Part shown: positions 7,586 to 11,303 of the stretch, one piece after another | Numbering within the stretch: position 1 is the first letter of the stretch | Layout of the letters: the number at the start of each line of letters is the position of its first letter | DNA from: Candidatus Latescibacterota bacterium | Lineage (GTDB): Bacteria > Latescibacterota > UBA2968 | Assembly (NCBI GenBank): GCA_038279365.1 | Contig: JAYODI010000049.1 | Span: 9,532-43,731, forward strand | Length of the DNA stretch: 34,200 nucleotides | Reading direction: 5' to 3' | Notes under the pieces: generated by a model | Told to the model about the DNA's origin: nothing | The model's input: the letters and a program-made list of their open reading frames with translations, nothing else | The model's database searches: none | Made by a program: the position numbers and the translations under genes

Positions 7586-7601
7586 CAAAAGGAGATTGAA
7601 G

Positions 7602-8882
7602 ATGGCTGTTCGGATCGTTTTAGGGGCGCAATGGGGTGATGAAGGCAAAGCAAAAATTGTCGATTATTTAACGACAGATTCCGATATTGTGGTGCGGTAT
7701 CAAGGAGGTGCCAATGCCGGGCATACCATTAAGGCGGGTGATTTGGAGTTTGTGTTTCACCTGATTCCGGCAGGCATTGTGCATCCTGAAAAAGCGTGTG
7801 TGGTTGGCAATGGTGTGGTGCTCGATCCAACGGCTTTGTTTCAAGAAGTAGATGATTTAGAAAGCAAAGGCATTTCGGTAGAAGGCCGCTTGTTTGTGAG
7901 CGATCGGGCTCATTTGGTGATGCCTTATCACAAACGATTGGAAGAAGCCAACGAAAAGAAGATTGGCGACAATGCCATTGGTACAACATTGCGTGGTATT
8001 GGCCCAACGTATCAAGACAAAATCAACCGCTCCACGGGTATTCGGGTGGGTGATTTGTTAGATGCCGAGTTATTGCCTGAAAAGATCCGCGCCAATGTGC
8101 GTATAAAAAATGAGATTTTGAAACATGTGTACGGTGTGGCAGGTTTGGAAGAAGTGCCATTAATTGAAGAATATATGGCATTGGGTGAACGGTTGACCCC
8201 TTATATTACCGATACCTCAGTTTATTTGAATGACGCCATTGAAGCGGGCAAAAATATTTTGTTTGAAGGATCACAAGGCACGTTGTTGGATATTGATCAT
8301 GGGTCTTATCCTTATGTGACGTCGTCAAATACCACCGCAGGAGGTGCTTGCACGGGTTCGGGCATTGGCCCTACGTGTGTGGATGAGGTGGTAGGTGTGG
8401 TAAAGGCGTATACCACCCGCGTGGGCAATGGGCCATTTCCGACAGAGTTGAATAATGAAATGGGGCAACGCATTCGCGATATTGGCCACGAATATGGAGC
8501 CACCACAGGTCGCCCACGCCGATGTGGGTGGTTGGATGTGGTTATTTTGCGTTTGGCTCGGCGCATTAATGGTTTGTCGAGCATGGCGGTAACGCGGGTT
8601 GATATTTTGGATGAAATAGAAGAGATTAAGATTTGTACGCATTATGTGCGCAATGGCAAACGTGTGGATCATTTTCCGAGTGATTTGAATGTGTTAGCCG
8701 AGTGTGAACCAGTTTATGAAACGATGCCAGGATGGCAAACACCCACAACACATATTCGAGCGTATGGTGATTTGCCCGAAAAAACACGGCGTTATTTGGA
8801 GCGTGTTTCTGAGTTGTCACGCATCCCAATTTCCATTGTTTCTGTGGGACCCGATCGGGAAGAGACAATTGTGGTGGAATAG
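7602..8882 (+). CDS. purA: Adenylosuccinate synthetase
   Basis: GAQWGDEGK, RYQGGANAGHT, IGTTLRGIGP, EGSQGTLLDIDHGSYPYVTSS, GATTGRPRRCGWLD. AGGAG RBS 7 nt before the ATG. Confidence 0.98.
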   Translation: MAVRIVLGAQWGDEGKAKIVDYLTTDSDIVVRYQGGANAGHTIKAGDLEFVFHLIPAGIVHPEKACVVGNGVVLDPTALFQEVDDLESKGISVEGRLFVSDRAHLVMPYHKRLEEANEKKIGDNAIGTTLRGIGPTYQDKINRSTGIRVGDLLDAELLPEKIRANVRIKNEILKHVYGVAGLEEVPLIEEYMALGERLTPYITDTSVYLNDAIEAGKNILFEGSQGTLLDIDHGSYPYVTSSNTTAGGACTGSGIGPTCVDEVVGVVKAYTTRVGNGPFPTELNNEMGQRIRDIGHEYGATTGRPRRCGWLDVVILRLARRINGLSSMAVTRVDILDEIEEIKICTHYVRNGKRVDHFPSDLNVLAECEPVYETMPGWQTPTTHIRAYGDLPEKTRRYLERVSELSRIPISIVSVGPDREETIVVE

Positions 8883-8897
8883 GGTTTTGGATAGCAT

Positions 8898-8940
8898 AAA
8901 AAGGCTTCTGTGGTATTTTCCACTGAGCCTTTTTGATTTT
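8898..8940 (+). terminator. Intrinsic terminator after purA
   Basis: aaaaaggct..gtgg / ccac..agccttttt hairpin followed by gatttt. Confidence 0.65.
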
Positions 8941-8959
8941 AACCATAAGATAATGTATA

Positions 8960-9000
8960 CAAAAAGCCGCCCTGAGTTATAAACTCAGGGCGGCTTTTTG
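8960..9000. terminator. Perfect 19-bp hairpin terminator; can act on either strand, probably ends a - strand transcript
   Basis: caaaaagccgccctgagtt / aactcagggcggctttttg, with A and T tracts on both sides. Confidence 0.8.
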
Positions 9001-9110
9001 CCGTTTCGAAACCGTTGGCTCCGTCCCCGCCGAGGTAGGAGGTTTTCGGTTTTTGCGACAAAAAATAGTTAGGCACATTGAGATGATCAATAAAAGAGGT
9101 GGCCTGACCA
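8960..9110 (-). ncRNA. Candidate structured small RNA with an anti-Shine-Dalgarno loop
   Basis: GC-rich structured block in AT-rich spacer DNA. On the - strand it contains the hairpin ccga-aaacCTCCTacc-tcgg and runs into its own terminator. No ORF. The 5' end is a guess. Confidence 0.35.
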
Positions 9111-9559
9111 CTTATACAATTTGCAACATTCGCGATAAAATATTGTTAAATAAAGAATAACATGCTTAATGACGCGACCACCAATAGCCAACGCATAATA
9201 GGTGTTGATCGGTTAGGGTGTTGTTGGTGTGTAATTTCTGGTCGTAAAATGGTTTCTGATGCATCACTGACAAAAGGTGACGAATCACTGTCCATGGGGG
9301 TATGTCTTGGCATTTCGGCGCTCCTTAAAATGAGGGAGATTTGTGGGGATCGCCACCGCAGCACTGTTTGCGCCACACAATAAATGTAAAAAAAAGGGTC
9401 GTGAAACCATGTGATGGGGCACACATTGGATGAAAAAAAGTAATCAAATGAATAGACGCATTGATCGCCTCATGGGTTTCACAGCATTAAATTCTTCACA
9501 AGTATAGACAATAATATGGTACGAGACAATATGTGATCATCAGATTTTACAATTATTTA

Positions 9560-9631
9560 ACAAAAGAAAAGGGTGCCGCTCCATCCTGGATCGGCACCCT
9601 TCGGCGTCCTGCCGTGTTATTCTAAGCTCAC
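9560..9631 (-). ncRNA. Candidate sigma28-dependent CsrA/RsmA-binding small RNA (~70 nt)
   Basis: - strand reads ...aataacaCGGC-AGGAC-GCCG aagggtgccgaTCC-AGGAT-GGAgcggcaccctt ttcttttg. This gives two hairpins with AGGA in the loop; the second doubles as a terminator with a U tract. It sits just downstream of a sigma28-type promoter. Confidence 0.65.
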
Positions 9632-9636
9632 TAATA

Positions 9637-9663
9637 TTATCGTCAGATTTGAAGATGTCTTTA
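9637..9663 (-). promoter_or_regulatory. Sigma28 (FliA/SigD)-type promoter
   Basis: - strand TAAA-gacatcttcaaatct (exactly 15 nt)-GACGATAA versus consensus TAAA-N15-GCCGATAA (1 mismatch). AT-rich DNA lies upstream. Confidence 0.7.
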
Positions 9664-9935
9664 ATAAATAATTCTAAATAACTCTACTTTGTAACATTTA
9701 TTACTATTTTAATATTTTAGGATGGTAAATATAGTAAATAATGGATTGATATTTTGGGATAAATGATTGTATATTCGTCATCATAAGGGAGCCGCTGAGA
9801 CCAACGGTTCAATCATTGAAACATCACATTTTGTGTTTGTTTGGCGTTTTGGATGTGTTGATAGATGGTTGGAGTGTTACCGTAATGTGGTTTCTATTTT
9901 TTTGTACGTTCATTTGGCATCTAAGGGTTTGAAAC

Positions 9936-10085
9936 ATGGCACAACAAAAACAAATTTTTCGCCAAGCGGCATTGGATCGGTTGTCAAGCCCAGATCAATT
10001 GGATCAACTCATGCGGGTGACCACGCCCAAAGGATGGATTGCGCTGATGGCTTTGTGCAGTGTGTTGTTGGCGGCAACCATATAA
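9936..10085 (+). pseudogene. N-terminal fragment of an NHLP/NHLM bacteriocin system secretion protein (HlyD-like membrane fusion protein)
   Basis: Translates as MAQQKQIFRQAALDRLSSPDQLDQLMRVTTPKGWIALMALCSVLLAATI* (49 aa, below the ORF-track cutoff). The FRxxALxRLSSPxQLDQLM.VT.PxGW signature is typical of this family's N-terminus. Confidence 0.75.
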
Positions 10086-10156
10086 AGTATGTGTTCGACT
10101 TTGACAAAGTCGTTGACGGTTTGTTTATGTCCCGTATATTCAAAAGAAATAAGACC

Positions 10157-10273
10157 GTCACAAGTCTCAGGTTAACAAATCACAAGTTTAAAGAAACTGT
10201 CACAAGTCTCAGGTCACCAAGTCACAAGTCTTTTGGTTCTGACCTGTGACTTGCAGACTTGTGACCTGCGACT
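10157..10273. repeat. Inverted heptamer-arm element (GTCACAA/TGACYTG family) upstream of moaA
   Basis: gtcacaa gtctcag ... occurs at 10157 and 10199 (42-nt period). Complementary arm tgacctg tgacttg cagacttg tgacctg cgact at 10240-10273. Confidence 0.85.
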
Positions 10274-10292
10274 GCCTGTTATTGGATATTTT

Positions 10293-11303
10293 ATGTCTTC
10301 TATTCTCGATACCCGAAAACGCCCCGTGCGCGATTTGCGCATTTCTGTAACGGATAAGTGCAATTTTCGATGCCCTTATTGTATGCCGGCAGAGATTTTT
10401 GGGGAGTCGTATGCGTTTTTGCCACGTGAAGAGATTTTGACATTTGAAGAGATTACACGGTTGACGCGGTTGTTTGTGGCGCATGGGGTGAATAAGATTC
10501 GCATTACGGGTGGTGAACCGCTTTTGCGCCGTGATTTGGAAACGTTGATTGGCCAAATTGCAGCGATTGATGGGGTGGACGATTTGACGCTGACGACCAA
10601 TGGCTATTTGTTGGCCGATAAGGCGCAGGCGTTGAAGGATGCGGGATTGCATCGGTTAACGATGAGTTTGGATGCGATTGATGATGCGACCTTTAATATT
10701 ATGAGTGGACGCACACATGGGGCAGATCGCACATTGGCAGGCATTGCGGCGGCAGAAGCGGTGGGTTTTGCGCCCATTAAGATCAATGCGGTGATTCAGC
10801 GTGGGGTAAATGATCATATGGTTGTGGATCTGGCTCGGCATTTTCACGGCTCAGGTCATATTTTGCGTTTTATTGAGTTTATGGATGTGGGCAATCGGAA
10901 CAATTGGAAGATGGATCAGGTGGTGTCTGCGGCAGAGATTATTGAGCGTATTCACGCGGTGTTGCCTTTGGAACCGATTGAGCCCAATTATCGGGGTGAA
11001 GTGGCCAAGCGGTATCGGTATGTGGATGGAGGCGGTGAAATTGGGCTGATTGCGTCGGTGACACAGCCATTTTGTGGGGATTGTACGCGGGCGCGGTTAT
11101 CGACCGATGGCAAGATTTATACGTGTTTGTTTGCCTCCGAAGGCCACGATTTGCGCGATTTGATGCGGTCGGGGGTGTCAGATGAGGCCGTGAGCAAGCG
11201 GATTGTAGAGATTTGGACGGCGCGTGCAGATCGGTATTCGGAGGTGCGGTTTGATCACACGCCGGAAGCGCGGAAGGTGGAGATGTATCAAATTGGTGGA
11301 TAA
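10293..11303 (+). CDS. moaA: GTP 3',8-cyclase (molybdenum cofactor biosynthesis, radical SAM)
   Basis: LRISVTDKCNFRCPYC, RITGGEPLLR, TTNG, RFIEFMDVG, FCGDCTRARL...TCLF, C-terminal IGG. Confidence 0.97.
   Translation: MSSILDTRKRPVRDLRISVTDKCNFRCPYCMPAEIFGESYAFLPREEILTFEEITRLTRLFVAHGVNKIRITGGEPLLRRDLETLIGQIAAIDGVDDLTLTTNGYLLADKAQALKDAGLHRLTMSLDAIDDATFNIMSGRTHGADRTLAGIAAAEAVGFAPIKINAVIQRGVNDHMVVDLARHFHGSGHILRFIEFMDVGNRNNWKMDQVVSAAEIIERIHAVLPLEPIEPNYRGEVAKRYRYVDGGGEIGLIASVTQPFCGDCTRARLSTDGKIYTCLFASEGHDLRDLMRSGVSDEAVSKRIVEIWTARADRYSEVRFDHTPEARKVEMYQIGG

Follow-up and report, generated by a model that had tools for sequence, protein, structure and literature searches.

A probable small RNA gene with a sigma-28-type promoter in Latescibacterota and its possible role as a CsrA decoy resembling the flagellin leader

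What is encoded in the 1.35-kb gap that separates purA (7596-8882, + strand) from moaA (10233-11303, + strand) in a Candidatus Latescibacterota bacterium, and could its product take part in the control of flagellin synthesis? The window analysed here is the whole stretch of 34,200 nt taken from assembly GCA_038279365.1 (contig JAYODI010000049.1, positions 9,532-43,731 of the forward strand), and its host genome, hereafter G000, comprises 6.0 Mb and is 98.5% complete. To our knowledge, no regulatory RNA is known in this lineage. The original prediction for this gap was a sigma-28-driven RNA devoid of ORF, whose two GGA-loop hairpins would act as a sponge for the regulator CsrA.

Every sequence feature of that prediction was recovered base for base on the minus strand (Table 1), with a refinement of the promoter: TAAA-N15-GACGATAA is indeed present at 9663-9637, the -35 box being actually TAAAG, which leaves an N14 spacer. 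The -10 box and hairpin 1 are about 22 nt apart, the unpaired UGAGCUUA included. Hairpins 1 and 2 abut (9602/9601) and 20 bases separate their GGA motifs; both loops are AGGAY pentaloops with C-G closing pairs. Two GGA sites are the minimum for one CsrA dimer. Hairpin 2 is composed, in order, of AAGGGUGCCG (10-bp outer stem), an A bulge, UCC-AGGAU-GGA, a G bulge and CGGCACCCUU, and doubles as intrinsic terminator. It was not listed by a simple terminator scan because the loop and stem rules of the latter disallow a bulged stem. Judging from where the -10 box and terminator lie, the RNA would be about 70 nt long. RNAfold gave -30.3 kcal/mol (z = -3.84), a value that none of 200 dinucleotide shuffles equalled, and left UGAGCUUA unpaired. 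The predicted lack of a credible ORF also held, since no minus-strand ORF of at least 30 aa overlapped the element. No tRNA was found in the window.

Table 1. Position of the element's features in the window
Feature	Positions	Strand	Details
Sigma-28 (FliA)-type promoter	9637..9663	-	-35 TAAAG 9663-9659, 14-nt spacer, -10 GACGATAA 9644-9637
Predicted transcription start region and 5' single-stranded UGAGCUUA (9630-9623)	9623..9632	-	Start inferred from -10 distance
Hairpin 1, CGGC-AGGAC-GCCG	9602..9614	-	GGA 9609-9607; candidate CsrA site 1
Hairpin 2	9569..9601	-	GGA 9586-9584; candidate CsrA site 2 and terminator stem
U-tract of intrinsic terminator, UUCUUUUG	9561..9568	-	Sequence read

Tandem pairs of AGGA-loop hairpins occurred four times in the 6.0 Mb of G000, against about two expected under a first-order Markov model, and single AGGA-loop hairpins were not enriched (697 observed, ~1076 expected). 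The element was alone among the four tandem pairs in displaying CGATAA upstream and a T-run downstream, and blastn-short found no paralogue of it in G000. The case for an element beyond chance leans mainly on its conservation.

Eight further copies were recovered, which brings the repertoire to six distinct sequences (G000, G001, G005, L078, to which L079 and L080 are identical, L081 and L082) in at least three gene neighbourhoods. Clear homologues were present in two of 40 relatives, one from the same genus (G001, 82% identity) and one from another genus of the family (G005, 79%); the next best match among these relatives had an E-value of 0.03. Scanning 185,579 species genomes for the two-loop pattern yielded six hits, among which two were true copies (L077 and L072, i.e. 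the G001 and G005 copies), one was an unrelated fliW leader and three lay in apparent coding sequence. The same pattern gave five hits in metagenome contigs, all five being true homologues. Sequences L078, L079 and L080 were identical across the 184 nt compared, L081 was the most divergent and L082 was close to the window copy.

Conservation extended over the promoter, where the -35 AAG and the -10 region CGATAATAT were invariant and at fixed spacing in all six variants, while the spacer itself varied freely; the G005 copy displayed an exact TAAA-N15-GCCGATAA. The 5' segment TGAGCTTA was likewise invariant (6/6), and so were, besides most positions of the stems, the AGGA of both loops. Hairpins and terminator were kept throughout; a lack of conservation of the GGA loops in relatives, which would have counted against the original prediction, was not observed. 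In hairpin 1, GGC/GCC and AGGA did not vary and the last loop base was either C or U. A T-rich tail followed the stem in each variant, the weakest being that of L078. The linker located 5' of hairpin 1 varied not only in sequence but also in length (by 2, 4 and 6 nt), which, together with the lack of a minus-strand ORF, fits a non-coding region. Two plus-strand ORFs of 30 and 32 aa were considered as coding and ruled out by the 2- and 4-nt indels and the pair-preserving substitutions of the homologues.

On the proposed fold, pairing was kept in 96.1% of 102 cells, against 34-62% when the partners were slid, and RNAalifold independently predicted the same structure. Two pairs of hairpin 2 showed compensatory changes (U-A/C-G, with a U-G intermediate, and G-C/A-U), and the mid-stem substitutions of the long stem all preserved pairing. 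Three G-U pairs (in G001, G005 and L078) would be A-C mismatches on the plus strand, and the minus strand is therefore the functional one. The covariation score was reached by 17 of 500 shuffles, a count that is not a probability and that comes from six related sequences, too few for significance. Since about 69% of the transcribed columns were invariant among the six variants, the invariance of the eight AGGA columns would alone be only a 1-in-20 event or so. In our view, the element is very likely a genuine small RNA gene carrying a promoter of the sigma-28 type.

Covariance model R1 scored the G000, G001 and G005 copies at 93-106 bits among the 53 genomes of the order, the next best match reaching 32.6 bits. 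Fourteen weaker matches were inspected as possible distant homologues and all turned out to be plain terminators devoid of hairpin 1 or of a sigma-28 box. Across 132 genomes of the class, seven gave matches with E <= 0.001, and the four new ones (G011, G075, G076 and G125) were again plain terminators. The pattern CGATAA-N15-45-CAGGAYG-N10-30-CAGGAYG matched seven of the 53 genomes of the order; three matches were the known copies and the other four, examined as analogous RNAs, look like GC-rich coding sequence.

In G000, G001 and G005, the element is located between purA and moaA and faces purA. The whole gap amounts to about 390 bp in G005, where the element runs directly into the convergent purA end and purA's own hairpin, and the nearest convergent gene end in G000 (purA, 8882) is about 680 nt away. 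Elsewhere, the element adjoins an intact upstream HlyD-like gene (L082) or is positioned after a peptidase M28 gene (L078-L081). Its own promoter and terminator accompany it at every locus: the element is a stand-alone gene, independent of its neighbours. G002, from the same genus, displayed no element; purA and moaA were not found either in this 88%-complete assembly, and since the locus is apparently unassembled, this absence is uninformative.

Other features of the gap deserve mention. On the plus strand, a 49-aa ORF (9936-10085) corresponds to the N-terminal end of a HlyD-like protein, whose gene is intact (at least 376 aa) at the equivalent place in L082; by this comparison, the ORF of the window appears to be a deletion remnant. 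On the minus strand, at a distance of about 250 nt downstream from the element, a 54-aa ORF (9146-9310) is found with AAGGAG as its ribosome-binding site. Its product starts with MPRHTPMDSD, ends with a hydrophobic C-terminal helix and matches no Pfam family; it is conserved in G001 and L082 and absent from G005. Six metatranscriptome runs shared 7-19% of the words of 7600-11300, and contigs from four of them covered parts of purA, positions 9001-9287 and parts of moaA, leaving 9336-10079, and with it the element, uncovered; these contigs carry no strand information, and libraries of this kind usually lose short RNAs. Positions 9001-9287 were covered by contigs of three runs from three studies, which suggests that RNA libraries do contain something from there. 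Just after purA (8897-9005, + strand), Rfam's 'trpB ncRNA motif' gave a match below threshold (37.1 bits for a gathering score of 59, E = 0.004) that may simply reflect the purA terminator region.

As to the promoter, a single FliA in G000 passes the family cut-off of 189.6 bits, with a score of 277 bits, and seven genes of the flagellin family are present in addition to flgL. The motif T[ACT]AAG-N14-NNCGATA[AT] occurred at 33 sites in this genome, 17 of which lay outside long ORFs according to a crude test. Three of these 17 were found upstream of flagellin genes (C20, C36 and C46) and one is the element; the ORFs downstream of the other 13 included, on the basis of Pfam, FlgM, a chemoreceptor (MCP), SprA-related and DksA/TraR-like proteins, and nine without family. 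With a looser promoter pattern, 62 hits were obtained for about 35 expected from base composition; the signal is carried by the strict motif, not by the loose one. With a FliA-type promoter in a fliA-bearing genome, the element is a candidate FliA-dependent small RNA. It has TGACGATAATATT in common with the C20 flagellin promoter of G000, and in G005 CGATAATATC is found in the element as well as in the promoter of the orthologous flagellin gene. Such sharing of promoter and first transcribed bases suggests an origin by duplication and hints that the RNA gene may have arisen from a flagellin promoter and its leader.

The proposed protein partners were found as well, since csrA, fliW, fliA and flagellin, the genes by which the original prediction could be checked, are all present in the genome. 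Genes fliW (C194:20332-20691) and csrA (C194:20737-20889) adjoin, directly after flgL. The 82-aa CsrA displays MLVLTRK, VSVHRGEVY (R6, R44, E46), N55 and a C-terminal extension, the last two features being described as marks of FliW-regulated CsrA in a study of Geobacter (PMC11934962). Hfq was not found in G000 (98.5% complete). At the level of the order, CsrA and FliW occurred in the same 12 of 53 genomes, encoded by adjacent genes, and were absent from two species-rich genera (g5, 0/21; g7, 0/15), which suggests that these genera lost the whole flagellar switch. The element was recorded in three of the 12 CsrA-bearing genomes and in none of the 41 others, counts that lend weak support to the association since the genomes compared are related. 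Nine of the 12 (among which G002, with its seemingly unassembled locus) do not have the RNA, and control by CsrA and FliW evidently works without it.

Another link with CsrA came from the flagellin leaders. In three of them in G000, GGC-AAGGAY-GCC comes first and ACAAGGAGG is then found at the ribosome-binding site. The corresponding motif, GGCAAGGAYGCC-N10-45-AAGGAGG, was found in 12 of the 53 genomes of the order, i.e. in 11 of the 12 CsrA-bearing ones and in one of the 41 others (G036), and the reversed pattern used as control gave 0 in all 53. In G005, the CsrA-bearing genome without exact match, the leaders deviate to GGC-AAGGAA-GCC in one case and GGGC-AUGGAC-GCUC in the other, with a GGAGG ribosome-binding site after each. 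Since the motif tracks csrA/fliW across the order, it is very probable that, in this clade, the GGC...GCC hairpin and its GGA loop serve flagellin mRNAs as their upstream site for CsrA. The 97%-complete G036 harbours the motif as GGCAAGGATGCC...ACAAGGAGG (C1:1555462-1555512), yet gave no CsrA/FliW match.

Hairpin 1 of the element, (C)GGC-AGGAY-GCC(G), is this leader hairpin minus one loop A, the loops thus differing as AGGAY pentaloops in the element and AAGGAY hexaloops in the leaders. The idea of a stand-alone mimic of the flagellin leader gained substance here, as hairpin 1 matches the very hairpin that tracks csrA/fliW in the order. The sequence GGCA(A)GGAYGCC occurred at ten sites in the 6.0 Mb of G000: three flagellin leaders, the element, one intergenic site (C172) and five apparently coding ones. 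The spacing of 20 bases from GGA to GGA is common to the element and the C20 flagellin leader. A spacing of about 20 bases is reportedly near the optimum for bridging by one CsrA dimer.

Related hairpins were encountered at two other places. The intergenic C172 site (near 45252, + strand) forms an AUGGC-AGGAU-GCCAU hairpin, and neither a sigma-28 box nor a clear downstream gene was found around it; it could be another CsrA site, or due to chance. In an unrelated uncultured bacterium (L073, ~1280-1400, - strand), hairpins GGGC-AGGAC-GCCC and then AUCC-AGGAC-GGA, with a GAGGA ribosome-binding site, directly precede an ORF starting with MLINTSRFGEV, which looks like FliW. These hairpins would then be a possible CsrA operator on fliW itself.

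What, then, would the RNA do? The best explanation, to which we give about an even chance, is that the element is a sigma-28-timed, two-site CsrA decoy mimicking the flagellin leader. FliA (sigma-28) RNA polymerase would transcribe it together with the flagellin genes. The RNA would then display its two AGGAY pentaloops, hairpin 1 imitating the GGA hairpin that lies upstream in flagellin leaders, and one CsrA dimer would occupy both loops. At the late flagellar switch-on, the RNA would compete with flagellin leaders for CsrA and would thereby constitute a second antagonist, added to the protein FliW. In this scheme, what is inferred is that the RNA is transcribed, that CsrA binds it and which way flagellin synthesis responds. 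With two GGA sites, i.e. one dimer per RNA, titration of CsrA would need a high abundance of the RNA. The decoy role gives no account of the conservation of the 5' UGAGCUUA; this segment and the TGAGCTTA it relates to could be a base-pairing seed or reflect a constraint on the initial transcribed sequence.

The first of these two possibilities leads to a different reading, which we hold to be unlikely though worth keeping in mind: a sigma-28-dependent base-pairing sRNA, with UGAGCUUA as seed like in FlmR/CJnc170 and with GGA loops that would be structural or would recruit CsrA, like in SR1 of Bacillus subtilis. Such a function would suit a segment, TGAGCTTA, that is invariant in 6/6 variants and unpaired though the following linker varies in sequence and length; invariant 5' bases could, however, equally reflect promoter or initial-transcript constraints. 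FliA-dependent base-pairing sRNAs are known (PMC11187230) and CsrA has been reported to promote sRNA-mRNA pairing in B. subtilis (cited in PMC7652899). Yet the complement of the heptamer had 188 sites in the genome, of which, in a crude search carried out without gene models, 12 were near plausible starts and none of these 12 was in a flagellar-looking gene. The failure to find Hfq in G000 also speaks against base pairing, which moreover leaves both the likeness between hairpin 1 and the leaders and the spacing of the GGA loops unaccounted for.

The sequences shared with flagellin promoters (TGACGATAATATT with C20, CGATAATATC in G005) would be expected if the element were a relic or by-product, namely a duplicated piece of flagellin promoter and leader that ends in a terminator, perhaps transcribed but with no regulatory role of its own or with another binding factor. 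This is improbable: two genera as well as other lineages from metagenomes keep the element, which occupies at least three neighbourhoods and shows pair-preserving substitutions and invariant loops, and such conservation across neighbourhoods combined with paired substitutions is unexpected for a decaying relic. Nor is the element likely to act in cis, and we regard as highly improbable that it is a leader or attenuator of the downstream minus-strand 54-aa ORF (9310-9146) or a mere terminator for its neighbours. G000, G001 and L082 do have, on the same strand, a small conserved ORF preceded by a ribosome-binding site, and RNA contigs cover part of it; but G005, L078 and L081 have the element without this ORF, and the copy of G005 directly meets the convergent purA end. 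Also against a role in cis are the ~680 nt that separate the element from the nearest convergent gene end in G000 and the G-U pairs, which mark the minus strand as the functional one.

If the decoy reading is right, the element would be part of a dual control of CsrA in an uncultured lineage outside Proteobacteria, exerted by FliW and by a dedicated sigma-28-timed, one-dimer RNA decoy derived from a duplicated flagellin promoter and leader minus the coding part; we put this wider scenario forward tentatively and would not yet call it probable. With it, Csr systems of the FliW type would gain a first antagonist in the form of a stand-alone sRNA. It would also show the birth of a sponge RNA from a target mRNA, as an evolutionary intermediate between a CsrA-titrating target mRNA (Campylobacter flaA) and a dedicated sponge (CsrB, RsmZ). 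Should the decoy reading be false, the element would still be a conserved sigma-28-dependent small RNA. It is a compact candidate (~70 nt, two loops) whose promoter ties it to the step of flagellin synthesis and whose hairpin 1 mirrors that of the flagellin leaders, so that the question of an sRNA acting beside FliW comes down to one protein and one short RNA.

The sponge RNAs CsrB/CsrC and RsmX/Y/Z of Gammaproteobacteria carry many GGA sites in CAGGAYG-like loop motifs and are thought to sequester CsrA/RsmA dimers. A GacA/UvrY box (TGTAAG-N6-CTTACA) is located upstream of CsrB/RsmZ-type sponge RNAs. The element resembles them in being non-coding and in presenting GGA motifs in hairpin loops, but differs by its two sites, its sigma-28-type promoter, the lack of a GacA/UvrY box and its FliW-bearing host. 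Allowing up to three mismatches, no such box was found between 2836 and 16089, and the eight matches recorded in the window at three mismatches compare with 9.8 expected by chance. Likewise, no Rfam family reached its gathering score in the whole window, and a permissive Rfam search of 8800-10300 retrieved none of CsrB, CsrC, RsmX, RsmY and RsmZ. The permissive matches overlapping the element were ctRNA_p42d (22.8 bits against a gathering score of 50), BjrC68 (17.7 against 39), RUF6-5 (16.4 against 70) and EF0408_EF0409 (13.3 against 440). A Moco riboswitch or another known RNA upstream of moaA was also considered, and no Rfam match was obtained. In published work, the presence of FliW is described as anti-correlated with BarA-UvrY (PMC7652899) and with CsrB/C sRNAs (PMC4894983).

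FlmR (CJnc170) of C. jejuni is a 47-nt, FliA-dependent RNA thought to base-pair with class II flagellar mRNAs (PMC11187230). It is described as short and unprocessed and as feeding back on flagellar biogenesis; the element likewise is short and has a sigma-28-type promoter. In the cited passages (PMC11187230), neither a GGA-loop nor a CsrA mechanism is ascribed to FlmR, in contrast to what is proposed for the element, and the Rfam search revealed no sequence relation between the two.

An sRNA antagonist of CsrA in FliW-bearing organisms was presented as an open question in a 2020 review (PMC7652899), and CsrB-like sRNAs have been predicted by software in FliW-bearing Geobacter (PMC11934962). 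The original prediction came with the remark that no described system of this kind was known to its author outside Proteobacteria. This claim has to be softened in view of the sponge role of the C. jejuni flaA leader and of the Geobacter predictions. For organisms having FliW, our full-text literature search retrieved no description of a CsrA antagonist in the form of a stand-alone sRNA; predictions for FliW-bearing genomes relevant to this point may be contained in the InvenireSRNA lists (Fakhry et al. 2017).

In the Hag-FliW-CsrA switch of B. subtilis, the hag leader is described as having a sigma-D promoter, a GGA hairpin site and a second site at the ribosome-binding site (PMC7652899, PMC13443453). 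The flagellin leaders of G000 display the same two-site layout, of which the element copies the hairpin site: as in hag/flaA-type leaders, a sigma-28-type promoter is followed by a GGA hairpin (site 1). Its second GGA is located in the apical loop of the terminator, without overlapping a ribosome-binding site and with no ORF thereafter, and the element therefore cannot be a translational operator or a flagellin leader itself.

The C. jejuni flaA mRNA leader has been described as an antagonist and sponge of CsrA beside FliW (Dugar et al. 2016, PMC4894983). From that description, it shares with the element a late flagellar promoter, a host having both FliW and CsrA, and two GGA hairpin loops about 20 nt apart. 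The flaA loops are hexaloops for which CsrA binding has been shown (PMC4894983), whereas those of the element are AGGAY pentaloops for which it is proposed. The flaA leader is moreover part of a flagellin mRNA, being both target and sponge, while the element is a separate gene with neither ribosome-binding site nor ORF, and its second loop lies, unlike that of flaA, within its own terminator. By analogy, it is the C. jejuni flaA leader that the element would most resemble in its working.
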